64,000 nt of DNA from a virus. The stretch is taken from positions 13,000 to 76,999 of IMG/VR virus record IMGVR_UViG_3300045973_000169; one strand, 5' to 3'. Positions 1-48,308 of the stretch are shown here, piece after piece (the first letter of the stretch is position 1; the number at the start of each line of letters is the position of its first letter). Both the position numbers and the translations under genes were made by a program. The notes beneath the pieces were generated by a model that did not search any database, had not been told where the DNA came from, and saw only the letters and a list, made by a program, of their open reading frames with translations.

Positions 1-182
1 GTATTTTATAGATTTTCAGTTTTAGTTATGTGGGATTTGGAAAAGTTATTTTTTACATATGGGTAGTTTGGAATGGGATTTAACATCCTAGTAGACTATA
101 GGTGAGTTGGGGTATGGGACCCTAATTCATAAACCGGAACCCCGGTAGGGTAAGTGTTGTCTACTATGAAAGGAGATTCAAA

Positions 183-713
183 ATGAAAGTACAATCAAAG
201 GTAGTGTTCAATGATTCAGCAGCCGTTGTTGAGGTAACAGATGCGTTGTTAGTTAGATTAATCACTCTTGACATGCACTATGGGGCATACAAGCTTGTTA
301 ATGGGGATTGGTCGGTACTGATATACAAGTCTCTTATGGACAGTGACCCAGTGGACACATACACATGTAATGGGGATCTATTTGATATGGAAGCATGTAG
401 CAGTGCATGCCATGCATGTAAGCATAGTATACCGAATGCTGTGTATACAATGGACAATAGAGTAGCAGGACTACTAGCTGATGCTATGGGTGATATGAGT
501 AAGACCACATCACGTAAGGATAGATACGATGTATTCTATACATACACTAAAGAACTTAACACTATGGACGAAGAGATAAATGTGCAGGTAGACAAGCAGT
601 ATCATACCAGTAGTGCATGGGCTGCATGGCATGAGTATCACTGTGCTATACATCAAGTATGGACACTGCTATGGGATATGTATAGGGGTGTAGTACAGCA
701 TAATAGAGCATAG
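183..713 (+). CDS. hypothetical protein (176 aa)
   Basis: Intact ORF with RBS aaaggagattcaaaATG; no recognisable motif. Confidence 0.6.
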   Translation: MKVQSKVVFNDSAAVVEVTDALLVRLITLDMHYGAYKLVNGDWSVLIYKSLMDSDPVDTYTCNGDLFDMEACSSACHACKHSIPNAVYTMDNRVAGLLADAMGDMSKTTSRKDRYDVFYTYTKELNTMDEEINVQVDKQYHTSSAWAAWHEYHCAIHQVWTLLWDMYRGVVQHNRA

Positions 714-834
714 GCAGGGTACCCTTAAGCCCTGTGCGTACATGTACTGCTAGTATAGGGTACATGTGGTGGGTATATAGGACAGTTGAGTCATCCATAA
801 AGGACTCTTATCCTACAGTCAGGGAGGTGATATC

Positions 835-1026
835 ATGACTCTCATGGATGTACTTGGCAATGATGCAGAGGACGTACTATGGGCGATAGGTAAGGCCCAT
901 GGGATGAACCCTATGGACAAGGTACAGCCACAAAAGAAAGAGAGTAGCATTACTGCTGAGTATCATAGGCAGTGCATGCACCCTGCTATAGATGAGGCTA
1001 TGGCAAGGGAAATGGGAATTGTGTAA
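835..1026 (+). CDS. hypothetical protein (63 aa)
   Basis: ORF with RBS agggaggtgatatcATG. Confidence 0.5.
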   Translation: MTLMDVLGNDAEDVLWAIGKAHGMNPMDKVQPQKKESSITAEYHRQCMHPAIDEAMAREMGIV

Positions 1027-1054
1027 CATAACCAGAAACAAGGAGGATATAACA

Positions 1055-1360
1055 ATGAGTGACTTGATCATGGTAGTACTGGTAGAGTGGATCATGGTAG
1101 TGGGTGGGTACTGGTCAGTGGTACAGGGACAGGGGTACAGTGCATCGTGGTGTATACTGTTCGCTGTAGTAGCAGGTGTTGCTGCTGTATGCGTAGGTGT
1201 ATCAGAGAGGGCCAATGCGAGGTATTCTAAAGAGTTGATAGCTCGTATAGAGGAGAAACTCAAGGAAGAACACTACAATGTAACATCACTGTATAAAGGG
1301 GGGATGGACATAGCGTTTATGGAGCAGGAAGACATTAACAAGAAAGGGGAAAAATCATGA
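1055..1360 (+). CDS. small membrane protein (101 aa)
   Basis: Start moved from the track's 992 to the ATG after RBS aaggaggatataacaATG; two hydrophobic stretches (VVLVEWIMVVGGYW, AVVAGVAAVCVGV). Confidence 0.55.
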   Translation: MSDLIMVVLVEWIMVVGGYWSVVQGQGYSASWCILFAVVAGVAAVCVGVSERANARYSKELIARIEEKLKEEHYNVTSLYKGGMDIAFMEQEDINKKGEKS

Positions 1361-1509
1361 GTATGTTCCTTATCAACAACGACAAAGTGAAGTACACGAT
1401 GGATCAGGCCCTGGAGTTTGGGGAGATGTTGAAAGAGATGAATGGTGGCGGGCTTATCACTATTCGTCCATTGGCCTGTGGCGCTGGTTACGAAGTAAGT
1501 GTAGCATAA
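1357..1509 (+). CDS. hypothetical small protein (50 aa)
   Basis: ATGA overlap with the upstream stop; RBS-like gaaagggga upstream; below the track's length cutoff. Confidence 0.35.
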   Translation: MSMFLINNDKVKYTMDQALEFGEMLKEMNGGGLITIRPLACGAGYEVSVA

Positions 1510-1527
1510 CTAGAAAGGAGAAACAAA

Positions 1528-1839
1528 ATGAAAAAGAATAATCGCGGCTGGATCAGGGTATTCATTATGAGCATCGTCCTCTTGGCGATAGTACTCTGGC
1601 TTATCACCAGAGCTTTCCAGAAAGGCCACGTGTATTTCGATATGCGTGTTGACCCTTCGTTCGCGCAGACATCGTATCTTGGTGATACTCGGTTAGAATG
1701 CGAATGGACTGAAGGTGAGTCCTTCGCTAGATGCTACGATTCTATGACTGATCGAGGGAAACACAATCCAATACTGATAACCTTGACACCGGCGAAGCTC
1801 GAATGGTGCAGGAATGAGTTAATGAAAGGGAGGATGTAA
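1528..1839 (+). CDS. membrane-anchored protein (103 aa)
   Basis: RBS aaaggagaaacaaaATG; N-terminal TM helix (IMSIVLLAIVLWLI). Confidence 0.6.
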   Translation: MKKNNRGWIRVFIMSIVLLAIVLWLITRAFQKGHVYFDMRVDPSFAQTSYLGDTRLECEWTEGESFARCYDSMTDRGKHNPILITLTPAKLEWCRNELMKGRM

Positions 1840-1842
1840 ACT

Positions 1843-2448
1843 ATGAGAACTCTTATCTTTATCATACTGGGAGTACTGTTCGCTGATGTATTGGTTGGTT
1901 GTGGAGATAATGCAACTATCACTCAGCCTGAGCCTAAGCATACTGAGACCTATTCTATTACTACCATCAACACATCTCTCTCATCTGGGACTATTGTAGT
2001 TGAGGGCGGAAATAAAGAAATACATTGGGGTGAATCAAGAACTATCATTATCACTCCTAAACAGGGGATGAAGATCAACTCTGTTAGGTTAGATAATAAA
2101 GAGATATTACTACCAGGATCAGAGTTTGGGTTCTGTACAACGCTCACAGATATCAAAGAAGATTACATTATAACTGTCAGGTACTCATTTGATATCAAGT
2201 ACTATGACATAACAACAAGCTGCGGCCCTGGAGGAATCGTAGAGGTAAGGGGTGGACTAAGTACTCATATCGCTATGGGTAGCAACAGAGCAGTAGCTAT
2301 TATACCCTTTGCAGGGTATCGAATTAAGGTAATAAGAAAGGATGGTGAAGTAATAATCCCAGAAGATCCAAACACAGGCTATATGATTGTATTCACAGTC
2401 ATATCAACTTCACACAACATCAATGCAGAGTTCGAGGAGGTTAACTAA
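1843..2448 (+). CDS. putative lipoprotein (201 aa)
   Basis: Signal peptide ending in lipobox-like LVGC (MRTLIFIILGVLFADVLVGCGD). Confidence 0.6.
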   Translation: MRTLIFIILGVLFADVLVGCGDNATITQPEPKHTETYSITTINTSLSSGTIVVEGGNKEIHWGESRTIIITPKQGMKINSVRLDNKEILLPGSEFGFCTTLTDIKEDYIITVRYSFDIKYYDITTSCGPGGIVEVRGGLSTHIAMGSNRAVAIIPFAGYRIKVIRKDGEVIIPEDPNTGYMIVFTVISTSHNINAEFEEVN

Positions 2449-2780
2449 TGGAAAAGCTTATTGGGTGGTTGATTGTGGCAGCAGGAGTGGAGTTTCGTGA
2501 GCTGGGGCAGTCTGCACAGCGTTGGACTGACATGGTGGCGATAGGTGGACGTTATCCTCTTGTTGCCTCACTGAATAAGGGCTTTGTTGTAGCTCGTATT
2601 CCCTGTATCATCAAGCAACAGGTGTCTGATGATATCATCATGGGTCAATTGGTCCCTCATACTGAACGCGATGAGGCGGCTAAAGGTGAAGAAACTTACT
2701 ATTACTATGAGATCCGTGATTACAATGTTAAGGATTTCAAGTACAACGATGCTGGTGATATCAGCATTGAACTCATCTAA
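2448..2780 (+). CDS. hypothetical protein (110 aa)
   Basis: ORF start overlaps the upstream stop (TAATG). Confidence 0.5.
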   Translation: MEKLIGWLIVAAGVEFRELGQSAQRWTDMVAIGGRYPLVASLNKGFVVARIPCIIKQQVSDDIIMGQLVPHTERDEAAKGEETYYYYEIRDYNVKDFKYNDAGDISIELI

Positions 2781-2851
2781 CTGTAGTATCCGGCCAGATG
2801 GACTCTACATCCATCTAAACTATCACTCTAACCAAACAAAGGAGAAACAAA

Positions 2852-3838
2852 ATGAAAACTATTATTATCATGCTTGCAGCAATTGAGTACGCAATTAACA
2901 TTGAAGATGGCGTTGCTATTACCGTGGAGAAGATCATGGATGCCCTCAGCAATAGGTTGGCTATTATCGATGGTATCCATAGCATCAATCCTAAAGGTAG
3001 CTGGATGCTCCCTGACCTCACGAGCCCTTACCCAAAGGAAAAGGGGGGAAGGACTTGGATGCGATTCACTGGGCTTAAGATCAAGAAGGAGAATGTCATC
3101 ACGCTTACTCCTAATGAGCAGAAATTATGGGAAGTTCGTGTCCAAAGCTGGTTAGACATAGCTAATGGGGTAACTACTAAGTTAGATCTTAGTTATGTTG
3201 TTACCCCTCCTGTTGTCCCCGAAGCTGATCGCCAGGATATCTTTACTGATAAGGATGGAACACAGTATCCTATTATATGGCATGCAAGCGCAAGAGGGCT
3301 TAATGCAAGGGTTGCATGGGAAGTAGAGTGCAGCAAGTGTACCACTAAGATTAAAGGCTATCGGCGTATTGCATCTAAGAATGGAGTGATCCCTGCTATT
3401 ACTGAACTTCAACCTTTCATGTGTGATGATGATGGTTGTGGTAATTCTGGCCGCAATTGGCTGTGCAAGGTACATATGCCATCGTTGGTTACTACAAACC
3501 AGTTGATCGAGGAAGCTCAGAAGCCTACATACATTGGGCAGATGAGTGTTAAACTCTTGAAGGAGCATTGCAAGGGTTTGGAAACACAGGTCCAGTTGGT
3601 CAAACAGCATGAAGAGCAGTACATCCAGGTTATTGACGAACTCGAGAAATCGGTTAAGCGTCTCGAGAAAGAGGTCCTGTCAATAGTCACCGCCAAGCAG
3701 ATGGTTGATGAGTTGGAGTCTTACTGTCAGACTCTGATTGTCAATCCTAACAAAGATGATGCTTCTGACCAGAAGATTGGGATCCTTGTCCGCTTGATTC
3801 ACCACTCAAGGGCTTGGATGTTGAAGGTGACGAAATAA
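2852..3838 (+). CDS. hypothetical protein with C-terminal coiled coil (328 aa)
   Basis: RBS aaaggagaaacaaaATG; heptad-like C-terminus (LEKSVKRLEKEVL). Confidence 0.65.
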   Translation: MKTIIIMLAAIEYAINIEDGVAITVEKIMDALSNRLAIIDGIHSINPKGSWMLPDLTSPYPKEKGGRTWMRFTGLKIKKENVITLTPNEQKLWEVRVQSWLDIANGVTTKLDLSYVVTPPVVPEADRQDIFTDKDGTQYPIIWHASARGLNARVAWEVECSKCTTKIKGYRRIASKNGVIPAITELQPFMCDDDGCGNSGRNWLCKVHMPSLVTTNQLIEEAQKPTYIGQMSVKLLKEHCKGLETQVQLVKQHEEQYIQVIDELEKSVKRLEKEVLSIVTAKQMVDELESYCQTLIVNPNKDDASDQKIGILVRLIHHSRAWMLKVTK

Positions 3839-3919
3839 TGGAAGAGACAGATCCTTGTACCCATTGTACACGCCCGTTCTGCTATGGGTGTGAATACCAA
3901 CTTAAAGGAGGTGATTAAA

Positions 3920-4099
3920 ATGCCGTGGAGCTTGACCTACTTCTTCTTGTGTAGGCATTGTCACTATATGGATGAGATTCCTGCTCATTCATTGCCTGTA
4001 CATGATGGTTGTCCCAAGTGTGGGGCAATCGGCTTCAGGAGACAGGTGCTTGAGGATGATCAGTTGGTTGATTTCAATCCTAAGAAGCATGTGAAGTAA
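3920..4099 (+). CDS. zinc-ribbon small protein (59 aa)
   Basis: RBS taaaggaggtgattaaaATG; CRHC...CPKC pattern. Confidence 0.45.
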   Translation: MPWSLTYFFLCRHCHYMDEIPAHSLPVHDGCPKCGAIGFRRQVLEDDQLVDFNPKKHVK

Positions 4100-4155
4100 A
4101 CAAACGTTCTGAGCAGGACGTTAAAAGGCTCATACTTAAATAGAGGAGATATATC

Positions 4156-7100
4156 ATGAGTAAGATCAATCGGAACCAATTGGTAACATTGGCCCAGCAG
4201 TTTGGTTTGTCATGGACTAAAAGCAAAACAATGTCATGCGATGATGTGTTGGCATTCATCGTTAAGGCTGGTGGTACTGTTGAAGAGGAACTTGACCGGT
4301 GCCATGAGCATGAAGCATTCGCAAAAGATGGCAAACTCTGCTCCTTGCTGCTCAAAGCAAAGGCAGAGAAAACAAAGGGCAAAGGCCCTAAAAAGGAGGC
4401 TCCTATGACCAAGGAGCATTACGACCCGATGGTGGAAATGAAGCGCCTTCTCGCTGAACAGGAGAAAGGTACGATTGTGACAACTGAGGAGCTGTTGACC
4501 TCTACGTCACCTACTGAGGTGAAAGATGTCAGGACAGGTAAACGCTTCACTCTGATCACTGGAGAGGAAGTCAATGCCTCTGAACAGGTAATGATGCCCG
4601 GTATCCTCGTTAAGCTGTACAAACAGGGTGAGGGTTTCATCATCCGTTTCGAGGATGGTGAGGTACCTATCGGTATCCATGCCATAAACAGGTATGGGGC
4701 TGCAACGATGAAGAATGAAGATGGGACTAATGTCTTCAAACTCATCCGCATTCAGCTCATTGACCCTCAGCTCAGGATCGAGGCTACCAAACAGTGCATC
4801 AGCAAGTTGCACGACCATGGGATGGAGAAGTATGGCCGTCCTCTGTACCCTATCTTCTGGCATTCCGATACCAAAGATATGAAGGGTCTCGTTGGCTTCA
4901 AAGAGGATTTCGATAAGCTGTTGGGTGTCGATATCTTTGCTGGCAAGGATCCGGTCAAGCTCATTGGCTATGATACTCCTACACGTATCATGGTGGCAAA
5001 CTGCACTAAGAACAGTCTCAGGTTCTTGGTTGTTAATCCTGTTGGCCCCAACGGTGAGGCTTACTGCGATGGGCAGGCATACATGAACTTCGAGTTCAAG
5101 TACATCAAGTGGCTGTCCACAAAGGAAAAGGAAGCTGGGAAAGAGGCTCAGTGGAAGAAAGAGGATACCATGCAGTTCAGGTGCTTCTCTCCTCTGTTCA
5201 TGAAGGGTCAGCAGCTCCTTGGTTGGCAGTATGTCCACGATATCTGCCATTCGTACAACATCGAGAACTGGCAGGACTACGATGGTGTGGTCAACCTCGA
5301 TGTCATGAAGACTAACCCTAATGGCCTGAAACATGGGGATAGCTTCGAAGTCAATCCGATGGATATCAGTATCGTTAACATGATCACTGAGAATCCTTCA
5401 TCCTCTGCTGGTGTGCAGTTGGTCACTCACAAGCCAAGTGTTGTTTGTGCTTTGGCTGATGAGATGGGTGTTGCCGAGAACGGTAAGACCTTCCGTGGTA
5501 TTCTGGATGGCAATCTCGATGACGTCTATAAGATGCTCATGTCCTCCAAGGTTAAGTCCATGGAAGACTCTGACATCGCTCCTGCTATGTTCTTGGGTAT
5601 GAGTGTACCCAATGGCAAGGGTAGCTGGCGTCCTCTCGCTATCAAGAGCATCAGGGATCGTGAAGCTGCTCGTATCACGAAGTTCTACCAGACTGATGTG
5701 CTCAAGATGCAGACGTCCGAGTTGGCTCTGTACTCCTGCGCTACACCGGTTATCATCAAGGATGCTAAAGGTAATCTCCGTGATTGCCTGTCAGTATTCG
5801 AGCGCTACACTCTGGAGAATGATGGGAATGCAGTTAACTATGTTATTCTCCCCGATGATATCGCTTTCATCCGCAAGTGGGTAGCCAAGAAGTGCAGGAA
5901 CTCGATGCGCCATCCGGTGGTTGGTATTGGTTCTATTCAGGAGGATACTAATCTCCCTAAGTATTTCGTCGATGAACTCATTCAGATGGGTTTCAAGTCC
6001 ATCTATACGATCAATGTGGATGGTGTCGATTATGCTGTCCATCCTGCTAAACACGGGATTCTTATCTCCTATGATCGGGCAATCGCTCAGAATGGGGACT
6101 TTGATGGTGATATGCAGTATTTCATCATCAGTGACACTGCCAAGTTCGGTGTTGCAAAGATGCCCGAGATCACCATCGACATGGAAGACACTGGCAAAGA
6201 GATCGATGCCTACAACCACAACGTGTACCACAAGTTCCTGTTGTACAAGTATGTGCAGGTTATCAACTCTCAGCCTCTCATTGGCTTGGTTGACCTCTTG
6301 GTACGTCGTATCATCGAAGAGAATAGGCTCAACAACAAGGGTCTGTCCGTTGCTCAGTACATGAAGTTGGCTCTCATCAGGGAGTCCATGATTCAGGGCA
6401 GGAAGCATCTCACCGATGATATGGACTTGGATAACCCTCCATCCGTGGATGAGGTCTACAAGAACATCAGTGAGCGTTTGATTCGCACGTATCACTGGGC
6501 TGGGAAGATGAATCCCAAGGGTGCTGCTGCTCCTGCTACGCACAAGCTGAAAGTGTTTGGTGCATCTGGTACTGGCATCAGGGCAACTTCAAGCTTCCAG
6601 GCTGTTCAGAACATTGTTGAATTGGTTCCTACAGCCAAGCGCCAGCCTAATTACTCCTTGGACCCTTACTCCAAGGGCTGGGATGAACTGATTGGTGCTC
6701 AGTACATGTACCACAATGAGGATGCTGTTTACTGGATGACCAAGTTCGATACCCTTTGGACTGCTCTTCAGAAGGGCAATAGCACCATCCTCGGTGTTGA
6801 AGTATCTGCCAAGCGTATCATCAGTGTAGTTTCGTTCTGCCACTACTTGGTGTACGGTAACTCTGGCAAGACCTGGTTGGGTTACACTGCAAGTGCACGT
6901 GACCTGCTCTCTATCAGGGATGAGAATGTTCAGCGTCAGGCATTCTTTGACCTCAACAAACAGATCGATGCTCTCGTTGCTGGATTCGTTGAGGAGCAGT
7001 GTGGTCTGGACCCTCACCGTCAGGATCTGCTCAAGAAGATGTTGACCATTTACTTGGGTAAGATTGGCTTCGGTGGTCGCTTGGGCAAGGGCATTTACAC

Positions 7101-7248
7101 TCTGCCTGATAATGGTGGTATCATTGGTCATTCTGGTGGTTGCTTCTGGCGTATGAAAGCCAAGTACATCATCTGGGTTGCCAAACTCATCCATCCCAAT
7201 AACCCGATGCTGGACCGTCTCATCGACGATTACAACATCAAGATGTAG
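4156..7248 (+). CDS. multisubunit-RNAP beta-prime-like catalytic protein (1030 aa)
   Basis: Long ORF with RBS aggagatatatcATG; motif ILISYDRAIAQNGDFDGDMQYFI resembles the universal beta-prime NADFDGDQM Mg-binding loop; the functional call is by motif only. Confidence 0.5.
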   Translation: MSKINRNQLVTLAQQFGLSWTKSKTMSCDDVLAFIVKAGGTVEEELDRCHEHEAFAKDGKLCSLLLKAKAEKTKGKGPKKEAPMTKEHYDPMVEMKRLLAEQEKGTIVTTEELLTSTSPTEVKDVRTGKRFTLITGEEVNASEQVMMPGILVKLYKQGEGFIIRFEDGEVPIGIHAINRYGAATMKNEDGTNVFKLIRIQLIDPQLRIEATKQCISKLHDHGMEKYGRPLYPIFWHSDTKDMKGLVGFKEDFDKLLGVDIFAGKDPVKLIGYDTPTRIMVANCTKNSLRFLVVNPVGPNGEAYCDGQAYMNFEFKYIKWLSTKEKEAGKEAQWKKEDTMQFRCFSPLFMKGQQLLGWQYVHDICHSYNIENWQDYDGVVNLDVMKTNPNGLKHGDSFEVNPMDISIVNMITENPSSSAGVQLVTHKPSVVCALADEMGVAENGKTFRGILDGNLDDVYKMLMSSKVKSMEDSDIAPAMFLGMSVPNGKGSWRPLAIKSIRDREAARITKFYQTDVLKMQTSELALYSCATPVIIKDAKGNLRDCLSVFERYTLENDGNAVNYVILPDDIAFIRKWVAKKCRNSMRHPVVGIGSIQEDTNLPKYFVDELIQMGFKSIYTINVDGVDYAVHPAKHGILISYDRAIAQNGDFDGDMQYFIISDTAKFGVAKMPEITIDMEDTGKEIDAYNHNVYHKFLLYKYVQVINSQPLIGLVDLLVRRIIEENRLNNKGLSVAQYMKLALIRESMIQGRKHLTDDMDLDNPPSVDEVYKNISERLIRTYHWAGKMNPKGAAAPATHKLKVFGASGTGIRATSSFQAVQNIVELVPTAKRQPNYSLDPYSKGWDELIGAQYMYHNEDAVYWMTKFDTLWTALQKGNSTILGVEVSAKRIISVVSFCHYLVYGNSGKTWLGYTASARDLLSIRDENVQRQAFFDLNKQIDALVAGFVEEQCGLDPHRQDLLKKMLTIYLGKIGFGGRLGKGIYTLPDNGGIIGHSGGCFWRMKAKYIIWVAKLIHPNNPMLDRLIDDYNIKM

Positions 7249-7315
7249 TATTGTCTCGTAGTATAATGGTTTGGTAGTAATATCCTTAAAACTACCAATA
7301 TATTAGGAGGTAAGT

Positions 7316-7576
7316 ATGTCAGACAGAATGTTTAAGCACGATATTTGTTTGCCAATAGGTGATTGCGATGATGATATAGGTGATTTCTTTAGTACTCTTG
7401 GCTGGGTTATTTATTTATCTATCCCAGCATTTGAAGGGATGGTTATCCAATTTGAGAATGGTGAACACTTAATGTTCTATGTTAAAGACATCATATACTC
7501 TTACTGGAAAAATACAGCTGTAATAACGCTAGTTAAATACAGAGGGAGTTGCTCCCCATACAAGAAAGGAGTATGA
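7316..7576 (+). CDS. hypothetical protein (86 aa)
   Basis: RBS ttaggaggtaagtATG. Confidence 0.55.
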   Translation: MSDRMFKHDICLPIGDCDDDIGDFFSTLGWVIYLSIPAFEGMVIQFENGEHLMFYVKDIIYSYWKNTAVITLVKYRGSCSPYKKGV

Positions 7577-7782
7577 TATGTCAAATAACTTACGTGAACG
7601 TTTTATTGAAACATATACGACATTATCTCTTTTAGTTAGAGAGTTTTATGGTGGTCGGCGTGTATCTAATAAAAGGAGGAAATCATGATTGAAGTTCACT
7701 TATCGTTAATGGGGTGGTATTACGTTGTGATACCTATTTGTGCTAAAGTATCTGTTTATCTGATCTATTAATGGAGGGTGAT

Positions 7783-8208
7783 ATGAGAAGGGGATATAAA
7801 CAACCTAAACTTGTTGATAAAGTTAAATCTCTTATTGAAGCAGATGCTATCTCATTAGATAGAGTTAGATGCTATGATAACTCTTTGGAGAGTATCCCAG
7901 CTAAAACAGGCAGGACATCCAGAACTCATGGGTTCGAACGTGTCATAATAGAGAGGAATCAGAAGCATCGTGTAAGGTTGAAGAAAGAAAAGAGAATGAA
8001 AGAGATATTTAAAAGGGGCAAGGAAGTCCTAGCAAAGCAAGGAAGTGATCACAACTGTATTAGGAGAGGTAAACGAACTTATAGTAAAGAAGAAGCTGAT
8101 GTATATATTAAAGGTTACAAGCAAAAGAAACTTGGGAAATACTATTGTAAGAAGTGTAGAGGTTGGCATCTAACTTCTAAGCTGGAGGTGAGTAATGGTG
8201 ATACTTAG
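7783..8208 (+). CDS. basic Lys/Arg-rich protein with C-terminal CxxC (141 aa)
   Basis: Start moved to the ATG after ggagggtgat; pI clearly basic; CKKCRGWH near C-terminus. Confidence 0.5.
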   Translation: MRRGYKQPKLVDKVKSLIEADAISLDRVRCYDNSLESIPAKTGRTSRTHGFERVIIERNQKHRVRLKKEKRMKEIFKRGKEVLAKQGSDHNCIRRGKRTYSKEEADVYIKGYKQKKLGKYYCKKCRGWHLTSKLEVSNGDT

Positions 8209-8419
8209 ATTCATATGGTTATCATTAATGGACCTATTCTTTCTATTCACTCAATTTAAATTAATAGGACTAATAGTATTCTTCCTATTGTTCTGTATTA
8301 TGTTCTACTTGAAGCGTAAATAGAATTTCATGGATTCTTCTGGAGTCATTCGAGAGAGTGGCTCCTAGAGAGTGCGCGAGCATTCTAACTGCAGTACACG
8401 TTACACCTGTTATACCTGT

Positions 8420-8490
8420 AGTTTACAAGTTACACCTGTTGTACCATAGTACCGTTTAACCGTTACACATTAGTAAATATACCGCTGCTC
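8420..8490. repeat. direct repeats GTTACACCTGTT x2 plus CGTTACACA
   Basis: Copies at 8420-8431 and 8449-8460 in a 500-bp non-coding region. Confidence 0.5.
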
Positions 8491-8552
8491 CAGTCCCCCT
8501 AAAGTCAAGGGCGTGGTGCTATTTGTTGTGTTGAGTTATTAAGTGAGTGATT

Positions 8553-8702
8553 GTGTTAGTTGTAGCATTGTAGACGTAAGTGTAGCATTTGTCCGAAGAT
8601 GTCTTATCGTTGGTTAGTGTTCGTTCGTGGAGTCGTGTTAGTGTATGAAATTTTGAAATGGTGTTAGTGTTTGGCACCATTCAATAAAAAAAAACGTGTT
8701 AG
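8553..8702. repeat. array of five GTGTTAG(TGT) repeats plus GTAGCATT x2 directly upstream of gene 8716
   Basis: Copies at 8553, 8612, 8635, 8661 and 8696; likely operator or iteron-like sites. Confidence 0.5.
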
Positions 8703-8715
8703 GAAGGAGATTGTC

Positions 8716-9201
8716 ATGATTAAAAAGCGTTCCATGGTAGCAACTGTTGAGAGTCTCAAGACCGATTTCGTGAAGTTTGGTAGCAATGCTGCCATCCGCC
8801 AGATCGATATCAATCTTGGTGACCAGACCCGCATCCGCTGTAATGAAGGCGATGCACTGTTCGACTCTGTTGTAAAGTCCGTTCGCGGTGGCTGTACTCT
8901 GTCGTTCGACTATGCCGACATCCGTGAGGACAAGAAGACCGAGGCTTTGATTTCGGGCGGTACTGGTTCTGTTGGTTCCGGTTGGTTCACCGTGCATGGC
9001 GTCGAGATTACCGATGCGAAACCCGGCGAGATCAGCAAGTTGCTGGAAGAGCGTTTGGAAGCTGCTGCTGTTCCGCTGTCCTTCCCCGAGGCTCCGCGTG
9101 AAATCGTTACCGGTAAGACAAAGGGTGACATTGTTCCCGAGTACAAAGCTGGGGCACATGCTGAAGCCTCTGCTACTGGTGACACGGTTGAGAAGTTCTA
9201 G
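8716..9201 (+). CDS. hypothetical abundant protein (161 aa)
   Basis: RBS ggaaggagattgtcATG; strong high-expression codon bias (GGT/GTT/AAG/CGT/CTG) unlike its neighbours. Confidence 0.65.
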   Translation: MIKKRSMVATVESLKTDFVKFGSNAAIRQIDINLGDQTRIRCNEGDALFDSVVKSVRGGCTLSFDYADIREDKKTEALISGGTGSVGSGWFTVHGVEITDAKPGEISKLLEERLEAAAVPLSFPEAPREIVTGKTKGDIVPEYKAGAHAEASATGDTVEKF

Positions 9202-9373
9202 CCTTTTGTGCTAGTGTACGATTTTGGTAGGGGTACCGAATCCCTGCAGAGGGATAGGATTGAGTTGCTAATCCCTATCAAACGGTAGAGGGGCCTCCAT
9301 TGTTATGCATACAGTGGAGCCGAAAAGCCCCTCACCGTATTATTCTGTATCGAAGGAAGGAGAACTTAAACCA

Positions 9374-9610
9374 ATGGTTATCGAAATTAAGAGTGACACC
9401 GTAGTCAGCTCAAATCGACCATGCCATGGATGTCGAAACTTCCAGTTTAGGAGAGTAACAACGGAAGAGACCGATCCTGAAGCTAGGATTGAGGCGCAAC
9501 AACTTACAAAAGAAACCTGTTTAACTTGTGGTATCACTCGACCACGAACTTCTTTAAAGATTTATAGAGTGAAAAGTCCACCTGAACGTCGAAAACAAGA
9601 AAGGGGATGA
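9374..9610 (+). CDS. zinc-ribbon protein (78 aa)
   Basis: Start chosen after RBS gaaggaaggagaacttaaaccaATG rather than the track's 9305; CHGC...CLTCG. Confidence 0.45.
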   Translation: MVIEIKSDTVVSSNRPCHGCRNFQFRRVTTEETDPEARIEAQQLTKETCLTCGITRPRTSLKIYRVKSPPERRKQERG

Positions 9611-9764
9611 TATTTTGAAAAACTTCTTTAAAAAAGTATTCAAGTATGGGTCCCTCTTTATTATGGGATATGCATTACACATACTTGTAGAGGCATTTGT
9701 TGTAACGAATATACTTGCTATGTTCGGGATGCATATTCCCGTTCTAGTATAAGGGGGTGAACTT

Positions 9765-10028
9765 ATGATCCATCCCATACTTCTGGCTTTCATTTCTATG
9801 ATTGTTGGGAGTGTTGCACTCGTTATTACATTCGCTACAGGTCGTTGGTTCTTTAGGAACTTTATTGATCCACCCAACATGGAACTTGTTCGTGAGTTTA
9901 ACTCTTGTGTTGAAACTATAACTCGAGAACATCAACGTGGGAAACAACTCTATCGTAAATTCGGTACTGCTGAAATGAGAATCGCACAAAAGAATTGGGG
10001 TGCTGAAACACTTAGCACTTTCAAGTGA
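9765..10028 (+). CDS. membrane protein (87 aa)
   Basis: RBS aagggggtgaacttATG; N-terminal TM helix. Confidence 0.5.
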   Translation: MIHPILLAFISMIVGSVALVITFATGRWFFRNFIDPPNMELVREFNSCVETITREHQRGKQLYRKFGTAEMRIAQKNWGAETLSTFK

Positions 10029-10039
10029 GGTGGTATATC

Positions 10040-10357
10040 ATGCTCATGGTATTCTATGTTGGATTCGGAACTGGCATATTGTTTTATATCATTAAACTTG
10101 TCATGTTCTTTATTAGTACCCGTGGTTGGTTAAACTGGCTATGGAGATTAGCTCATCGTAATGGATTAGCTTTATTCATATTCGACTTTATATTCGGATT
10201 GATAATCTCTAGTGCCATACACACTGCTGGAGCCGAAGGGTTAACTACCCTATTTGTATTTATCGGCTTCACTGTAAGCTCATGTTTTTACGTTATCACA
10301 CACCTTAGTTGTCGAAAGGGAAAGGAGTTAGCATGCGCATTTGGCCGTTCGTATTAA
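10040..10357 (+). CDS. multi-pass membrane protein (105 aa)
   Basis: RBS gaggtggtatatcATG; three hydrophobic segments. Confidence 0.55.
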   Translation: MLMVFYVGFGTGILFYIIKLVMFFISTRGWLNWLWRLAHRNGLALFIFDFIFGLIISSAIHTAGAEGLTTLFVFIGFTVSSCFYVITHLSCRKGKELACAFGRSY

Positions 10358-10539
10358 TGATGACAATGTGCATACTCTTCTTTGGTGTAATGTTCTTTGC
10401 ATTCTATAAGTTTATCATCCTCTTAATCGGGGCTGCTTGCTTTGCATGTGCAATGTTCGTAACACTTAAGGTCTGTATCCCATTTGTCAATTGGTGCTAT
10501 GGTTTGAAACACAGAATTAAAGATTGTACTGGTAGATAG
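10333..10539 (+). CDS. membrane protein (68 aa)
   Basis: RBS gaaagggaaaggagttagcATG; two TM helices. Confidence 0.45.
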   Translation: MRIWPFVLMMTMCILFFGVMFFAFYKFIILLIGAACFACAMFVTLKVCIPFVNWCYGLKHRIKDCTGR

Positions 10540-10720
10540 CGTTCGCGGACTGCCATCCTGAGAGATAGAGACTCTAAGTGCCAACTCAAAAAGGCATGTA
10601 CAGTTTCTTTGGCTGATATACGTGAACATACGCTAAATGATCCTATATTACGACTCTTGCCTGACTGGTCATCGGGTAAAAGCATATTTAGAGGATTAGT
10701 TCTACCAGTGCATTAAATAA

Positions 10721-10807
10721 GCCTCTATGGTGGAATTGGTAGACACAAGGGACTTAAAATCCCTCGACAGTAATGTCGTCCCAGTTCGACTCTGGGTAGG
10801 GGCACCA
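10721..10807 (+). tRNA. tRNA-Leu (anticodon TAA), class II with encoded CCA
   Basis: Hand-folded cloverleaf: acceptor GCCTCTA/TAGGGGC, D-arm, anticodon stem AGGGA/TCCCT with loop CTTAAAA, variable stem CGAC/GTCG, T-arm CCCAG-TTCGACT-CTGGG, then ACCA. Confidence 0.85.
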
Positions 10808-10829
10808 CTCTTACACGAAAGGAGATACA

Positions 10830-11033
10830 ATGAAACTGCCTAACATGACTAAGTTAAAAGACATCAAAGGGGAACCTATGTATGTTAATGCTGACAGGGT
10901 TACTTCAGTTACTCTTGATGCAACGGGTACGAACACTGTCATCTGTCTTGATGGCAATGTCCAAGGCTTTTATGTCAAGGGTACGCCCGACGAAGTTGTT
11001 GCACTCATCGACGCTGCACATATCATCTCGTAG
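10830..11033 (+). CDS. hypothetical protein (67 aa)
   Basis: RBS gaaaggagatacaATG. Confidence 0.5.
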   Translation: MKLPNMTKLKDIKGEPMYVNADRVTSVTLDATGTNTVICLDGNVQGFYVKGTPDEVVALIDAAHIIS

Positions 11034-11061
11034 TATAAACTCGCTTGAAAGGAGAATTACC

Positions 11062-11436
11062 ATGAACAAGAAAGAACAGGATGCATTCCTCCTTGCCTAC
11101 AATGGCAGGACATTCGAACAACTGACTGAAGCAAAGAAATCCGATTTCAGCGGAAAAGAAGACATCTACTTCGATATCATGAAAGCTAAGGGAGCTGATA
11201 AACCTGCTGGTGCATCTACACTTATCGTCATGGGCCTGAAAAAGAAAGTCATCGACGGTGTTGTCGAATCCATCACCGGTCTCAAAGCAACTGGCGCTCA
11301 GGCTATCATCGAGTCTGATGCCGAGAAAGAAAAGAACGCCCTGCTGGAAGGTATCGCTGAAGCAACCAAAGACATGCCGCAACCTGCTGTAGCTGCCATG
11401 CTCAAAGCTTTGAACGATGCCAAACAGCACCCGTAA
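11062..11436 (+). CDS. hypothetical abundant protein (124 aa)
   Basis: RBS aaaggagaattaccATG, with start moved from the track's 10882; high-expression codon bias. Confidence 0.6.
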   Translation: MNKKEQDAFLLAYNGRTFEQLTEAKKSDFSGKEDIYFDIMKAKGADKPAGASTLIVMGLKKKVIDGVVESITGLKATGAQAIIESDAEKEKNALLEGIAEATKDMPQPAVAAMLKALNDAKQHP

Positions 11437-12056: not shown

Positions 12057-12166
12057 TTTCCTCGTCCTTACCCATCTAACTTAGTGTTATTGTTCGGAGT
12101 TATCTTCCCACTGTATATAGGTGTTATTGTTTGGTGTTTAATCTATTATTTAAAAGGTGGTATTGT

Positions 12167-16799: not shown

Positions 16800-16985
16800 A
16801 TGTCTGAATTTGCCATGAAGTATTTAGCATTCGTTATTATGTTATTGATTGGGGTTGAATGCTCTGTAATGAATACAAAAGATAAGGATGCATTACAATC
16901 AGTTATATCGTTTGTTGCATTAATAGTTTATGTTGTTATTTATATCATAAAGAAAGGTGTTATTGTTTGGCACCTATTTAGCTAA
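16800..16985 (+). CDS. small membrane protein (61 aa)
   Basis: ATG at 16800; two TM helices. Confidence 0.5.
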   Translation: MSEFAMKYLAFVIMLLIGVECSVMNTKDKDALQSVISFVALIVYVVIYIIKKGVIVWHLFS

Positions 16986-17827: not shown

Positions 17828-17912
17828 GGGGTTGTAGCGGATCGGCCTTCTAAGCCGTGCACATAACACCGTAATGGATCGCATGCTGGTTCGAATCCAG
17901 TCAGCCCCTCCA
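17828..17912 (+). tRNA. tRNA gene, 85 nt, anticodon uncertain (possibly TCT, Arg)
   Basis: Acceptor GGGGTTG/CAGCCCC, T-arm GCTGG-TTCGAAT-CCAGT and encoded CCA are clear; a stem-loop TCGGC-CTTCTAA-GCCGT would place anticodon TCT; the D-arm and variable region could not be folded by eye. Confidence 0.55.
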
Positions 17913-18323: not shown

Positions 18324-18398
18324 GGGTCTCTCTTCCAGTGTGCAGGAAGATCCGCTCATAACGGATTAAGTAGAGTTCGATTCTCTAGGGACCCACCA
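18324..18398 (+). tRNA. tRNA-Met/Ile2 (anticodon CAT), 75 nt with CCA
   Basis: Full cloverleaf folded: acceptor GGGTCTC/GGGACCC, D TTCC-AGTGTGCA-GGAA, anticodon ATCCG-CTCATAA-CGGAT, T TAGAG-TTCGATT-CTCTA. Confidence 0.85.
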
Positions 18399-18463: not shown

Positions 18464-18531
18464 GGATAAATGAGTAGTTTTAAATAATGAAAATCTATTC
18501 GTTGTAGGTTCGAGTCCTACCTATCTCACCA
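18464..18531 (+). ncRNA. tRNA-like element with canonical T-arm/acceptor 3' end but no foldable 5' half
   Basis: GTAGG-TTCGAGT-CCTAC then CTATCTC-A-CCA; the 5' side is AT-rich and pairs only 6/7 in the acceptor, with no D-arm. Confidence 0.3.
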
Positions 18532-27648: not shown

Positions 27649-27858
27649 ATGTTAACATTTTGTTTAATAGTTTTAATAGTTTATCTAACTCCTACTTTAT
27701 TACTTTTAGCACTTTGTGTGTATTTAAGAACAATAGCTAAAGCAGATATTGATATAACACTTAAGAATACATTTAGTTGGTCTTTTGCTTGGCCCTGGTG
27801 GGTAATTATAGGGTTGATTGAAGACTTTAAAAGGAGAAGAGAAAATGATTCTAATTGA
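27649..27858 (+). CDS. small membrane protein (69 aa)
   Basis: Two TM helices. Confidence 0.5.
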   Translation: MLTFCLIVLIVYLTPTLLLLALCVYLRTIAKADIDITLKNTFSWSFAWPWWVIIGLIEDFKRRRENDSN

Positions 27859-28672
27859 TAATAGAGAAGTTAAGTTTGGTAAGTTTCCAAACGGTGAAAG
27901 TAATCTGAACTATAACACTATCGAATTCTGTCATGATAGTGATGTTATTCTTAAGTTTGAGTCTGATATTGATTTATTTAATCTTTATATTCTCAAGAAG
28001 TATATGGATTCTTGTATTTGCTATAATAAGATTTCATTAAAGGTTCTTTATTTCCCTTACTCACGTATGGATAGAGAGAATGATTTCTATACTTTTAATC
28101 TTAAGTATGTTGCTCAGATGATTAATGATATGAACTTCTATGAAGTTATTGTTGGGGATATACATTCAGATGTAGCTCCTGCTTTAATCAATAACTATAC
28201 TGGATATTCTTCTATTGATATTCTGTTTGAAACATTCAGAGATGAAATTGGTATTTCTGATTTTAGTATTATGTTCCCTGATGCTGGTGCACAGAAACGT
28301 TATGGAACTGGCTTTGCTTATCATACTCTTGTTGGATTTAAAGAGCGTGATTTTAGTGATGGGCGTATCCTTGGAATGAAAGTCTTTGGTGATGTACATC
28401 CTGGGAAGCCTGTTGTTATCATTGATGATTTATGTTCTAAAGGTGGAACATTTATTGGAGCAGCCAAAGCTTTGAAAGAAGCTGGTGCTGGTGATATCTA
28501 TCTTATTGTTGGACATTGTGAGAATACTATTGATGAAGGAGCTGTCTTTACATCTGGACTCATTAAGAAGGTCTATACTACTGATAGTATCTATAGTAAT
28601 CCTACAACTATTTGGAATACTTCTGATAGATTGTATGTCCATAAACTAATTGTACATGAAAAGAGATACTGA
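27845..28672 (+). CDS. ribose-phosphate pyrophosphokinase (Prs) family enzyme (275 aa)
   Basis: RBS aaaaggagaagagaaaATG; FGKFPNGES, VLYFPYSRMDRE (PYxxYxRQDR), FPDAGAQKRY and PRPP loop VVIIDDLCSKGGT all align to Prs motifs. Confidence 0.85.
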   Translation: MILIDNREVKFGKFPNGESNLNYNTIEFCHDSDVILKFESDIDLFNLYILKKYMDSCICYNKISLKVLYFPYSRMDRENDFYTFNLKYVAQMINDMNFYEVIVGDIHSDVAPALINNYTGYSSIDILFETFRDEIGISDFSIMFPDAGAQKRYGTGFAYHTLVGFKERDFSDGRILGMKVFGDVHPGKPVVIIDDLCSKGGTFIGAAKALKEAGAGDIYLIVGHCENTIDEGAVFTSGLIKKVYTTDSIYSNPTTIWNTSDRLYVHKLIVHEKRY

Positions 28673-29157
28673 TGAATATAATTCAATCTCCTAAGAATAC
28701 AAATGGATATGAAGTATATTCAATGTTTCTTGCTGGTGGTATATCTGGTTGTGATGATTGGCAGAAGTATGTATGTAATCAATTAGTTGAGCTATATAAG
28801 CCAAATGATGAAGTTTATATATTTAATCCTCGTAGAAAAGGCGACTTAACTAAAGAAGGAGCAATGGCTAGGAAACAAATTCTTTGGGAGTATAAGTATT
28901 TACAATTATGTGATTTTTATGCATTTTGGTTTCCACAAGAAACATTATGTCCAATAACTTTATTTGAATTAGGAAAATACGCTAATTGTAATGCTGTTGT
29001 TGGTATTCATCCTGATTACAAAAGAAGATTTGATCTTGAAATTCAGCTCCCTTTAATAAGTAAAAAGATTAAGATCGTTTATGACCTTGATGAATTTGTT
29101 GAAGCTATTGCAGAAAAAATGTTATTAGAAAGGAAAGATAATGGAGAATGTAATTAG
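28672..29157 (+). CDS. nucleoside 2-deoxyribosyltransferase-like protein (161 aa)
   Basis: MFLAGGISG and FELGKYANCNAVVG resemble NDT-family Rossmann motifs; moderate. Confidence 0.55.
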   Translation: MNIIQSPKNTNGYEVYSMFLAGGISGCDDWQKYVCNQLVELYKPNDEVYIFNPRRKGDLTKEGAMARKQILWEYKYLQLCDFYAFWFPQETLCPITLFELGKYANCNAVVGIHPDYKRRFDLEIQLPLISKKIKIVYDLDEFVEAIAEKMLLERKDNGECN

Positions 29158-48246: not shown

Positions 48247-48308
48247 CCCCATCCTGTAACACTATCCCTCAAAAATAGTGTTATGGTTTGGGGTCTAAAT
48301 AATTTTTG
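48247..48308 (+). terminator. rho-independent terminator
   Basis: CCCCA...AACACTAT / ATAGTGTT...TGGGG hairpin followed by TCTAAATAATTTTT. Confidence 0.5.

Follow-up and report, generated by a model that had tools for sequence, protein, structure and literature searches.

The polymerase gene and its product

The stretch of DNA analysed here, 64,000 nucleotides long and called the window throughout, is phage-like: 106 of 113 crude gene calls lie on one strand, and tRNAs, NAD-salvage genes and RNA-repair genes are present. It comes from an uncultured phage of ~206 kb (own contig, 206,638 bp), which encodes a 1030-residue protein with the following features at the level of the gene.

4156..7248, + strand: gene for a 1030-aa single-chain two-barrel RNA polymerase-like protein, ATG start, stop codon included
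4145..4148, + strand: Shine-Dalgarno sequence GGAG, 7 nt 5' of the ATG, read directly from the sequence
6091..6117, + strand: NGDFDGDMQ, aa 646-654; its aspartates D648/D650/D652 form the triad predicted to bind the catalytic Mg2+ ions

The open reading frame has no internal stops on translation and includes ILISYDRAIAQNGDFDGDMQYFII. A first-pass annotation had reported NGDFDGDMQ in a 1030-aa reading frame at this place, and the ORF list, the translation and the motif coordinates all agree with it. The motif is the sole D-x-D-[GIAS]-D in the 64 kb window, when all six-frame ORFs of at least 60 aa are considered, and every one of the 28-29 family members covering the site has D648, D650, G651 and D652, although most of these members have just 18-27% pairwise identity to the window protein. 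Since the motif is unique among the ORFs of the window and invariant at this degree of divergence, it is not a chance occurrence. The gene was also correctly placed in the GC-richer part of the window: its GC content is 0.48 (GC3 0.59) compared to 0.34 in the rest, and GC3 is about 0.16-0.33 in the genes beyond 12.9 kb. The high-expression bias that the first-pass annotation ascribed to this part would follow from GC3 only.

Sequence family

Searches with the single protein found no family in Pfam at E ≤ 10, including no RNA_pol_Rpb1 or Rpb2 domain, which makes the earlier remark that colinearity with bacterial beta-prime could not be seen by eye a fair one at the sequence level. In PHROGs there were two marginal matches of unknown function only (E 0.009 and 0.03), and in the PDB sequences a chance match only (E 0.8). 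The protein showed no resemblance to Pfam RNA_pol (PF00940) or to the fold of the T7 and N4 RNAPs, that is, to the T7-like right-hand, Pol A-type RNA polymerases (RNAPs). The window protein had no tblastn match in 50,697 GenBank phage records. When these phages were searched with three members the polymerase family was absent; for two distant members, the sole tblastn match was to the SLOG domain at the N terminus of one of them. A search for related loci with the close trio gave just the IMG/VR contig already known.

Finding the relatives took an exhaustive HMMER scan over 1.84 billion representative proteins; they number only ~30 cluster representatives, mostly of ~1000 aa; a word-indexed homology search found two, even with the 30-sequence alignment. 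All 20 relatives whose sources were checked are metagenomic, and none of these 20 is present in NCBI or UniProt. The protein, very probably a single-chain RNA polymerase with the two-barrel fold known from the cellular enzymes, thus belongs to a rare sequence family that is recognised by no database profile and has so far been seen in metagenomes only. As a sequence family it is new; the kind of enzyme is known.

Links to characterised polymerases appear at the level of profiles. The best match of the family profile (A2) among PDB sequences was the beta'-like barrel of phiKZ gp55 (E 0.098), in an alignment that runs from R-x-P through DFDGD (RNPTLQRGSTQ...NADFDGDQL in gp55). With hhalign, 112 columns covering DxDGD, the bridge helix and the trigger loop were aligned to P23-45 gp64, with a pairwise E of 4.4e-4 and a probability of 34%. 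Membership of the YonO family, raised in the first-pass annotation, did not hold up by sequence: the hhalign comparison with a YonO profile of 15 sequences (A3) was not significant (probability 1.6%), nor was that with YonO as a single sequence. No match to PF05183 (RdRP) was found in the 30 family members at E ≤ 0.01.

Predicted structure and active-site signature

An AlphaFold2 (AF2) model built from 30 diverse family sequences reached a pLDDT of 83.8 and a pTM of 0.79; one built from 3 sequences only (pLDDT 34) was left uninterpreted. Comparison of the model with double-psi beta-barrel (DPBB) polymerases had been proposed at the outset as a check. Foldseek returned six PDB matches at E ≤ 1e-5, each with a probability of 1.00 and all two-barrel polymerases: phi14:2 gp66 (6vr4), the P32 gp64 and P74 gp62 RNAPs (8f72, 8f5m) and maize RDR2 (7w82). 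Further down came P23-45 gp96 and chains of the beta'/Rpb1 type. Between 469 and 628 residues of the window protein align to the single-chain enzymes. In BFVD at E ≤ 0.001 several matches had no informative name; all 10 that did were crAss-type, P23-45 gp64 or "RNA dependent RNA polymerase" phage proteins. By this comparison, the predicted overall fold consists of two DPBBs that would form a catalytic cleft. The model and the family alignment give the following map.

4156..4542, + strand: N-terminal ~129 residues with short helix pairs; the region differs between family members and is probably flexible (pLDDT <50 for residues 1-129)
4543..5016, + strand: aa 130-287, beta-rich N-terminal domain ahead of the first barrel; AF2 models its strands with confidence and gives it one long helix; boundaries drawn from secondary structure only
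5017..5418, + strand: beta-type barrel (DPBB-B / DPBB1), aa ~288-421, with residues invariant in 28 of 28 sequences
5068-5073, + strand: D305-G306, invariant, in the beta-type barrel
5173-5205, + strand: Q340-F-R342...K350-G351, invariant, in the beta-type barrel
5308-5310, + strand: K385, invariant, in the beta-type barrel
5401-5418, + strand: S416-x-x-G419-x-Q421, in the beta-type barrel, invariant in 28 of 28 sequences
5419..5838, + strand: connector between the barrels, aa 422-561, mostly helical in AF2, boundaries approximate (from secondary structure)
5839..6135, + strand: beta-prime-type barrel (DPBB-A / DPBB2), aa ~562-660, with Pro-gate loop, insertion and catalytic loop; the whole segment is aligned to phiKZ gp55 by A2
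5908-5916, + strand: R585-H-P587 "Pro-gate" loop (P587 in 29 of 29 sequences, R585 in 23 of 29)
about aa 600-630, + strand: lineage-specific insertion in the second barrel
6217..6330, + strand: assigned bridge helix, aa 688-725, 38 residues, a helix in AF2 (G710 invariant, D713 in 28 of 29, R717 in 26 of 29)
6346..6411, + strand: assigned trigger-loop segment (I746 invariant, K750 in 28 of 29)
6412..7245, + strand: C-terminal helical domain in AF2, aa 753-1030, with conserved D856, F972-G973, G994, P1014 and N1016

Pfam Rho_N (helix-extended-helix) was found in 5 of 30 family members and a cpYpsA SLOG domain in 2 of 30; the window protein itself has neither match. Only in P0022 was the N-terminal placement of such domains directly seen: there, the match to phage SLOG proteins spans residues 3-135.

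Across 28-29 sequences with an identity of ~20%, D305-G306, Q340, R342, K350, K385, P587, D648, D650, G651, D652, G710 and I746 are invariant. This signature is colinear with that of QDE-1: D709, Q736-x-R738, K743, K767, R962-x-P964, D1007-D1009-D1011, bridge helix and trigger loop. The pairing of single residues, such as D305 with D709, is taken from order, spacing and published alignments, not from superposition. The roles of the QDE-1 residues have been established by structures and mutagenesis; D709, Q736-x-R738, K743 and K767 bind cation B, product RNA and NTP phosphates. In RNAi-related RdRPs, Q736/R738 of QDE-1 replace K979 of Pol II. The function of the R-x-P loop has been described for QDE-1 and Pol II, and both YonO and QDE-1 require the homologous aspartate triad. 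A published structure-based alignment also fits at the DG, Q-x-R and KG positions: in it, "GDG" and "KG" occur at corresponding places in gp64, gp96, QDE-1, Tth beta and PolD, and all aligned two-barrel polymerases have the "KG" of strand beta4. KGLVGFK (aa 243-249) was considered as the two-lysine motif of the beta barrel and rejected, as it is not conserved across the wider family; Q340-x-R342...K350-G351 is the element that is.

The features of both barrels are found in the protein. [quoted passage not shown] The two lie in one polypeptide, beta-type first, joined by a connector that sits at the equivalent position in single-chain two-barrel RNAPs, and an invariant Q-x-R is found where multisubunit RNAPs have the first lysine. 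As regards the assigned elements beyond the second barrel, hhalign pairs helix 688-725 with gp64 ~365-392, labelled bridge helix in the P23-45 paper, and residues up to 748 with gp64 402-418; gp64 402-424 (...EMIQVAVDRKRD) is the trigger loop in the published structure-based alignment. The basic turn at 749-752 lies just beyond the aligned block and was matched to gp64 by eye. From the architecture of gp64, QDE-1 and gp66, the C-terminal domain probably provides clamp or C-terminal elements.

Genomic context and candidate promoter motif

A conserved gene lies downstream of the polymerase gene.

8716..9201, + strand: 161-aa conserved neighbour with an acidic C-terminal tail ending in Phe; the real start, ATG 8716, was set by alignment

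By BLASTP this neighbour recurs, again downstream of the polymerase, in three other loci (L001, L002 and L006). It has no match in Pfam, PHROGs or the PDB, and its GC of 0.53 and GC3 of 0.56 are close to the values of the polymerase gene, to which it is linked by position only. The acidic tail ending in Phe gives the impression, and only that, of an SSB-like protein. In two relatives of the polymerase (L002 and L011) the adjacent downstream gene is for a protein with an RNAP alpha-CTD-like DNA-binding domain and an HTH. A chimeric assembly behind the GC step near 11-12 kb was considered and rejected, as the genes that span the step stand in the same order in L001, an independent contig: polymerase, 161-aa gene, 110-aa gene and DUF2828/VWA gene.

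An enriched motif is present near several genes.

7259..7274, + strand: copy of the enriched motif, whose consensus is TAGTGTTATTGTTTGG; as a phage promoter element it is a candidate and a lead only
8659-8674, 12082-12097, 12119-12134, 16955-16970 and 48276-48291: other copies just 5' of genes

With up to 3 mismatches, TAGTGTTATTGTTTGG has 9 matches compared to 1.3 expected, a number reached in none of 100 shuffles. Eight are on the + strand, a bias partly explained by the G/T-rich nature of that strand. Four of the six listed sites end 15-42 nt before an ATG with a ribosome-binding site; the copy at 12119 stops about 34 nt short of the likely ATG 12168, with the 12082 copy in tandem upstream. 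The stretch ATGGTTTG..AGTAATATCCTTAAAACT, which follows the polymerase gene, is conserved in L002; the candidate promoter motif as such is not conserved in relatives. GTTATTAAC was tried as an enriched intergenic element and dropped at chance level (30 matches compared to 28 expected).

Proposed mechanism and role

Since the sequence links to characterised RNAPs lie below conventional significance, the assignment of function draws on predicted structure and motif colinearity. With these, the 1030-aa protein is probably an active two-barrel RNA polymerase. It would be a single-polypeptide, Mg2+-dependent, template-directed enzyme of the two-barrel superfamily, in the clade formed by the phage single-subunit RNAPs (Thermus phage gp64/gp62, crAss gp66 and YonO) and the eukaryotic RNAi polymerases (QDE-1 and RDR2). 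The active site would lie at the interface of the two barrels within one chain. In the second barrel D648/D650/D652 are predicted to hold two catalytic metal ions, and the R585-x-P587 loop may sense the ribose 2'-OH and the minor groove. In the first, D305 would belong to the second-metal shell, and Q340, R342, K350 and K385 would hold the RNA 3' end and the NTP phosphates. [quoted passage not shown]

The likely role is that of a DNA-dependent RNAP that needs no host RNAP to transcribe a part of the ~206 kb genome of the phage, most likely as a non-virion enzyme made early. By analogy, we lean towards a non-virion, DNA-dependent transcriptase of phage genes, with modest confidence. In three relatives (L001, L011 and L012) the polymerase gene follows a strand switch and a run of small genes, as does the gene for P23-45 gp64, the non-virion RNAP (nvRNAP). 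Because the gene in these relatives lies behind the run of tiny genes, a few kb from the strand switch, like that of gp64, the enzyme would be non-virion and early; the evidence is gene position, seen in the three relatives and not in the window, where no strand switch occurs within the available 4 kb upstream. A virion-packaged RNAP like crAss gp66, P23-45 gp96 or N4 vRNAP, injected with the DNA to transcribe the first genes and not made after infection, is a reading that we regard as unlikely here.

Since members of the clade can be RNA-dependent (QDE-1 and RDR2), DNA dependence is proposed from the phage analogues only. An alternative reading is a polymerase acting mainly on RNA templates, like QDE-1 or RDR2, or a synthase of RNA primers for phage replication. 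All characterised phage members of the clade (YonO, gp66, gp64 and gp96) are, however, DNA-dependent RNAPs transcribing phage genes, and QDE-1 itself has both activities. The phage "RdRP" label stems from PF05183, which also matches YonO relatives and, as noted, no member of this family. This alternative is quite improbable.

The first-pass annotation had left the choice between a diverged single-subunit and a split-subunit phage RNAP, and had expected a beta-like partner nearby. Its central idea stands: the single-subunit class (crAss gp66-like or YonO-like) is favoured and the split one is not. No other RNAP-like ORF or beta-like partner was found in the 64 kb window (six-frame ORFs of at least 60 aa), and none is needed, because both barrels are in one chain: the beta-type barrel, with its own invariant D-G, Q-x-R, K-G and K, lies at aa ~288-421. 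The protein might still be thought one subunit of a phiKZ/AR9-like multisubunit RNAP, since its best PDB profile match is the phiKZ nvRNAP beta'-like subunit gp55, its genome is jumbo-sized, and jumbo phages are usually reported to have RNAPs of the multisubunit type. In the phiKZ/AR9 type, however, the beta'- and beta-like modules are on separate polypeptides and most resemble cellular beta'/beta, so this reading, already disfavoured, is very improbable. A PolD-like two-barrel DNA polymerase, or a catalytically dead relic keeping DFDGD for non-catalytic reasons, can be given hardly any weight.

Significance

Single-chain two-barrel RNAPs are minimal relatives of the cellular transcription machine. 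Each one newly characterised has had a different architecture and a different solution to promoter recognition. To our knowledge only a handful have been characterised: YonO, crAss gp66, Thermus phage gp64 and gp96, and QDE-1/RDRs. The present polymerase family is invisible to Pfam, PHROGs and BLAST and is found on large phage genomes. If active, the protein would be a polymerase of compact size (~115 kDa) whose DFDGD site is canonical, and a new data point on how RNAi polymerases and cellular RNAPs evolved from phage enzymes, and it could serve as an orthogonal transcription tool. A recent review of jumbo phages discusses multisubunit RNAPs or dependence on the host only.

A wider proposal, which we offer tentatively and consider rather doubtful as a whole, is that this protein is the founding member of an undescribed single-chain two-barrel RNAP family, the transcription enzyme of large (90-206 kb) uncultured phages, with its own promoter code (a GTGTTATTGTTTGG-like element 15-45 nt upstream of genes), some members of which recruit an alpha-CTD-like accessory DNA-binding factor encoded immediately downstream. 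The alpha-CTD-like protein beside two distant members suggests such an accessory-factor mechanism. If true, this would be a new way to give promoter specificity to a minimal two-barrel RNAP.

Comparison with known polymerases

The Thermus nvRNAP (P23-45 gp64 / P74-26 gp62; 8f72 and 8f5m) has 12% identity to the window protein over the structural alignment. The window protein is about 400 residues longer than gp64 (1030 compared to 616), with a disordered N-terminal region of ~130 residues, a larger connector, a ~30-residue insertion in the second barrel and a C-terminal helical domain of ~280 residues. The gp64 enzyme comes from an 84 kb Thermus phage, whereas the phage of the window protein has a genome of ~206 kb and, within the window, a GC content of about 34%. 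The virion RNAP of the crAss-like Cellulophaga phage phi14:2 (gp66; 6vr4) is 9-11% identical; it has 2,180 residues, is packaged in the virion and carries a DFDID motif. In contrast, the window protein is half that size, has the canonical DFDGD and is not part of a structural module.

Identity to QDE-1 and RDR2 (7y7p, 7w82/7w84) is 10-12%, and PF05183, as above, matches no family member. Both are enzymes of eukaryotes; QDE-1 forms a dimer and has a regulatory C-tail. An RNAi-type role is implausible for the window protein because of its phage context. The window protein differs from the multisubunit beta'/beta enzymes (RpoC/RpoB, phiKZ and AR9) in having both barrels fused in one chain, and where those enzymes carry the first of two lysines in the beta barrel, its family has a Q. 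One insertion of the beta barrel, the sandwich-barrel hybrid (flap), is missing from RdRP/YonO-type enzymes.

Like YonO of the SPbeta prophage, the window protein is phage-encoded, of ~100 kDa class, single-chain and two-barrel, and both have R-x-P, D-x-D-G-D and an IISD-type strand in that order, with an R...KG element in the first barrel. YonO has M-x-R, whereas the family described here has Q-x-R. YonO relatives number more than 4,600, many of them in NCBI and many matching PF05183, compared to the ~30 representatives of the present family, 0 of 30 with that match.

The Probable Polymerase Gene and Its Composition

The gene and its signature motif lie in the window as follows.

4156-7248, + strand: polymerase-like ORF, ATG start, 1030 codons
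6091-6117, + strand: NGDFDGDMQ, residues 646-654, checked in translation

The first-pass annotation had described an ORF with NGDFDGDMQ in a GC-richer part of the window, and both points hold. The ORF and its translation, which contains ILISYDRAIAQNGDFDGDMQYFII, were verified, and D-x-D-[GIAS]-D is unique to this ORF when all six-frame ORFs of 60 aa or longer across the 64 kb are considered. A Shine-Dalgarno sequence, GGAG, is found 7 nt 5′ of the ATG. The GC content of the gene is 0.48 (GC3 0.59) compared to 0.34 for the remaining window, and at each of the five loci compared the polymerase gene exceeds its flanks in GC.

There is also a broader step in composition between positions 1-11400 and 12000-64000, with GC falling from 0.43-0.48 in the first ~10 kb to 0.29-0.35 past 12 kb, and GC3 from 0.5-0.6 in several left-hand genes to 0.16-0.3 on the right. 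Since the independent contig of a relative, L001, keeps the gene order across this step, an assembly chimera was ruled out as its source. The cause could lie in expression class, in a recent acquisition or in codons adapted to the host.

A Rare Family Known from Metagenomes

Searched alone, the window protein matched no Pfam family at E ≤ 10, no PDB sequence below E 0.8, and only two marginal PHROGs of unknown function (E 0.009 and 0.03); tblastn against 50,697 phage records gave no match. In an index of 5.8 billion proteins, two relatives (52-53% identity) were the only matches besides the protein itself. When 1.84 billion cluster representatives were scanned exhaustively by HMMER with a profile of these three sequences, 30 proteins scored E ≤ 0.001; they are mostly of ~900-1360 aa, and most are 18-27% identical to the query. 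None of the 30 aligned members matches an RNAP or RdRP Pfam model; a Rho_N (helix-extended-helix) domain is found in five and a cpYpsA SLOG domain in two. This fused, circularly permuted YpsA-type domain, N-terminal in P0022 (L007:466-3912) and also present in P0025 (L013:2895-6977), suggests that a nucleotide or ligand regulates these polymerases. In Maribacter phages there are related SLOG proteins that stand alone.

All 20 members checked came from Logan, JGI or ENA metagenome assemblies, several on contigs of 91-161 kb, and none was present in NCBI or UniRef. The polymerase body of two distant members was not found in GenBank phages by tblastn, and a search of IMG/VR with the close trio returned only the contig of P0003, a family member. 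The window protein represents a rare, unannotated sequence family, known so far from metagenomes only.

Predicted Structure

AlphaFold gave a pLDDT of 34 with three sequences; the model used was built from the 30-sequence alignment (pLDDT 83.8, pTM 0.79), and its low-confidence parts are confined to residues 1-129 and two short loops. Foldseek against the PDB returned six matches at probability 1.00: the crAss-like phi14:2 virion RNAP gp66 (6vr4), four chains of the Thermus phage RNAPs P32 gp64 and P74 gp62 (8f72, 8f5m), and maize RDR2 (7w82). P23-45 gp96, followed by many β′/Rpb1-type chains, had weaker scores. In the ranked structure comparison, unrelated helical proteins first appear at rank 14.

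Structure comparison of the predicted model (score; aligned residues)
P74 gp62 (8f5m): 14.5; 469
phi14:2 gp66 (6vr4): 14.1; 628
Maize RDR2: 10.7; 534
QDE-1: 10.2; 622
P23-45 gp96, two crystals: 9.9, 9.4; 327, 335
RPA1, vaccinia rpo147, archaeal A, Pol IV, Mtb β′, AR9 β′, Rpb1: 8.8-7.6; 149-283
phiKZ gp55: 7.2; 165
PolD DP2: 7.0; 260

In BFVD there were ten significant matches, all at ~10% identity, which included crAss-type proteins, P23-45 gp64, one protein annotated "RNA dependent RNA polymerase" and several unnamed proteins. The earlier proposal had been made to depend on structural similarity to double-psi beta-barrel polymerases. This similarity was found by Foldseek with the AlphaFold model, and the three sets of matches therefore favor a polymerase of this type.

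Active-Site Signature

Complex structures and mutagenesis of QDE-1 have assigned functions to its active-site residues. In barrel 1, D709 coordinates cation B via water, and Q736-x-R738, K743 and K767 contact the product RNA and NTP phosphates. Next in order comes the R962-x-P964 Pro-gate loop, in contact with the ribose 2′-OH and the minor groove, followed by the barrel 2 aspartates D1007, D1009 and D1011, which hold cations A and B, and then by the bridge helix and trigger loop. All of these elements have apparent counterparts in the window protein's family, in the same order and with similar spacing, the equivalences being drawn from order, spacing and alignments. Each site is covered by 28-29 family sequences, over which conservation was counted. 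D305, G306, Q340, R342, K350, K385, S416, G419 and Q421 are invariant, as are P587, D648, D650, G651, D652, G710, I746 and N1016; R585 (23/29), D713 (28/29), R717 (26/29) and K750 (28/29) are nearly so.

Spacing of active-site elements (window protein's family; QDE-1)
D to Q: 35; 27
Q to K: 10; 7
K to K: 35; 24
K to R-x-P: 200; 195
R to first D: 63; 45

The longer R-to-first-D spacing is due to a helix-hairpin insertion at approximately residues 600-630. A published structure-based alignment of gp96, gp64, QDE-1, gp66, Thermus β and PolD places "GDG", "VQGRFG" and the universal strand-β4 "KG" at corresponding positions. When the deep family profile was compared with PDB sequences, the best match was the β′-like barrel of phiKZ gp55, from R-x-P through DFDGD (E 0.098). 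With P23-45 gp64, hhalign aligned 112 columns, query 629-748 with gp64 307-418 (probability 34%, pairwise E 4.4e-4), a block that takes in the DxDGD loop and, as delimited in the P23-45 paper, the gp64 segments 365-392 (bridge helix) and 402-424 (trigger loop). The core of the earlier reading, a diverged RNA polymerase with DFDGD as its catalytic loop, is borne out by fold and motif colinearity on the predicted structure; the window protein is very probably such an enzyme, with DFDGD its predicted catalytic loop.

Gene Neighborhood and a Candidate Promoter

In L001, L011 and L012, three loci of relatives, the polymerase gene follows a run of tiny genes and has a strand switch 4-5 kb to its left, and in L011 a terminase-like gene is on the opposite arm. 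No strand switch was seen within the 4 kb visible upstream of the gene in the window. P23-45 has the same layout around the gene for its non-virion RNAP, gp64, which is transcribed very early. By analogy, the layout shared with these three loci favors a non-virion, early-made enzyme.

A conserved gene recurs 3′ of the polymerase gene in the window and in L001, L002 and L006.

8716-9201, + strand: conserved 161-aa gene

It is as GC-rich (0.53) as the polymerase gene. Its listed TTG start at 8671 is probably wrong; the ATG at 8716 agrees with the alignment and is preceded by an RBS. The protein has no Pfam, PHROG or PDB match, and its acidic C-terminal tail, with Phe last, is reminiscent of SSB-type tails. 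Directly 3′ of the polymerase gene in L002 (3231-3920) and L011 (13052-14020), whose polymerases share 53% and ~24% identity with the window protein, are genes for mutually homologous proteins with an RNAP alpha-CTD (PF03118, E 2e-20) and an HTH. The window has no homologue. These proteins could be accessory DNA-binding factors of the phage polymerase, or decoys for host activators.

With up to three mismatches, TAGTGTTATTGTTTGG has nine matches in the window compared to 1.3 expected, a number reached in none of 100 shuffles. Eight of the nine are on the + strand, on which G/T-rich words are commoner anyway. Six lie just 5′ of genes.

7259-7274, + strand: TAGTGTTATTGTTTGG copy, directly 3′ of the polymerase gene
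8659-8674, + strand: copy preceding the 161-aa gene, inside a GGTG...CACC hairpin
12082-12097, + strand: copy
12119-12134, + strand: copy
16955-16970, + strand: copy, inside a GGTG...CACC hairpin
48276-48291, + strand: copy

Four of these six end 15-42 nt 5′ of an RBS-bearing ATG. In L002, ATGGTTTG..AGTAATATCCTTAAAACT, part of the stretch 3′ of the polymerase gene, is conserved. Ahead of the 161-aa gene, the window and L002 both have a GTGTTA(T/G)(T/G)TATGAAA-like element, of which L001 shows a weaker form. TAGTGTTATTGTTTGG as such is not enriched in the relatives. Sigma-70-like sites are under-represented in the first 1-12.5 kb of the window (14 compared to 29.7 ± 6.4 expected). TAGTGTTATTGTTTGG could be a phage promoter or RNA element.

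The Phage Genome

The DNA comes from a large phage that has not been cultured. Crude gene calling gave 113 genes in the window, 106 of them on the + strand; many genes are small, and tRNA genes are present, as are genes for a radical SAM enzyme, a metallophosphoesterase and an ATP-dependent DNA ligase. A JGI contig of 206,638 bp carries a protein identical to the one in the window. When the first 25 kb were compared with GenBank phages by megablast, the only match was a tRNA. Other recognized features are:

22602-23978, + strand: DUF2828/DUF7788/VWA protein (counterpart L001:20453-21883)
27818-31262, + strand: NAD+ salvage pair, a PRPP-synthetase-like gene close to a NAMPT gene
38996-40471, + strand: RNA ligase
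42950-44170, + strand: CCA-adding enzyme with HD domain
44920-46062, + strand: RlaP
50162-50926, + strand: small reverse transcriptase, 254 aa (RVT_1, E 1e-21), adjoining genes without assignment
53281-54015, + strand: Prok-E2_D
54015-54803, + strand: Prok-JAB
54854-55627, + strand: 257-aa gene, no assigned family
55630-56757, + strand: ThiF-type E1
17828-17909, 18507-18517, 20862-20872, 24341-24351, 24425-24435, + strand: T-arm-like sequences matching GGTTCGAGTCC

The E1/E2/JAB cassette (53281-56757) is a phage-borne ubiquitin-like conjugation system. The DUF2828/DUF7788/VWA gene lies ~10-18 kb 3′ of the polymerase gene in both the window phage and the L001 phage; together with the RNA ligase, CCA-adding enzyme and RlaP it suggests a sizeable RNA-repair module. 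Phage NAD+ salvage pairs of this kind are reported to counter NAD-depleting defence. The tRNA T-arm-like GGTTCGAGTCC has five intergenic matches compared to 0.18 expected. The tRNA at 17828-17909 was called by Rfam and missed by ARAGORN, and the ARAGORN calls tRNA-Leu (10721-10807) and tRNA-Met (18324-18398) are absent from the Rfam list at the gathering threshold. The window may hold more tRNA or tRNA-like genes than either program reports.

Comparison with Known RNA Polymerases

The literature counts 23 families of two-barrel RNAPs, and the family described here was set against YonO/PF05183, gp64, phiKZ-type and T7-type enzymes. With gp64, the sequence comparison gave the 34% hhalign probability cited above. 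For jumbo phages, the reviews consulted name multisubunit RNAPs, plus YonO-like enzymes in two Firmicute phages. The window protein is not a T7-type RNAP, and by sequence its family falls outside YonO/PF05183. A split RNAP of the phiKZ type, in which the window protein would be one part of a divided enzyme, is disfavored, and the protein does not belong to that type: both predicted barrels are within ORF 4156-7248, and the family HMM found no second copy in the window. As there is also no further DxDGD ORF there, the nearby beta-like partner that had been expected is unsupported. Alignments to single-chain enzymes extend over 469-628 residues, and the window protein is very probably a complete single-chain enzyme, not a β′ fragment. 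All of the structural and sequence features of the two-barrel superfamily that were tested were found, on the predicted structure. [quoted passage not shown]
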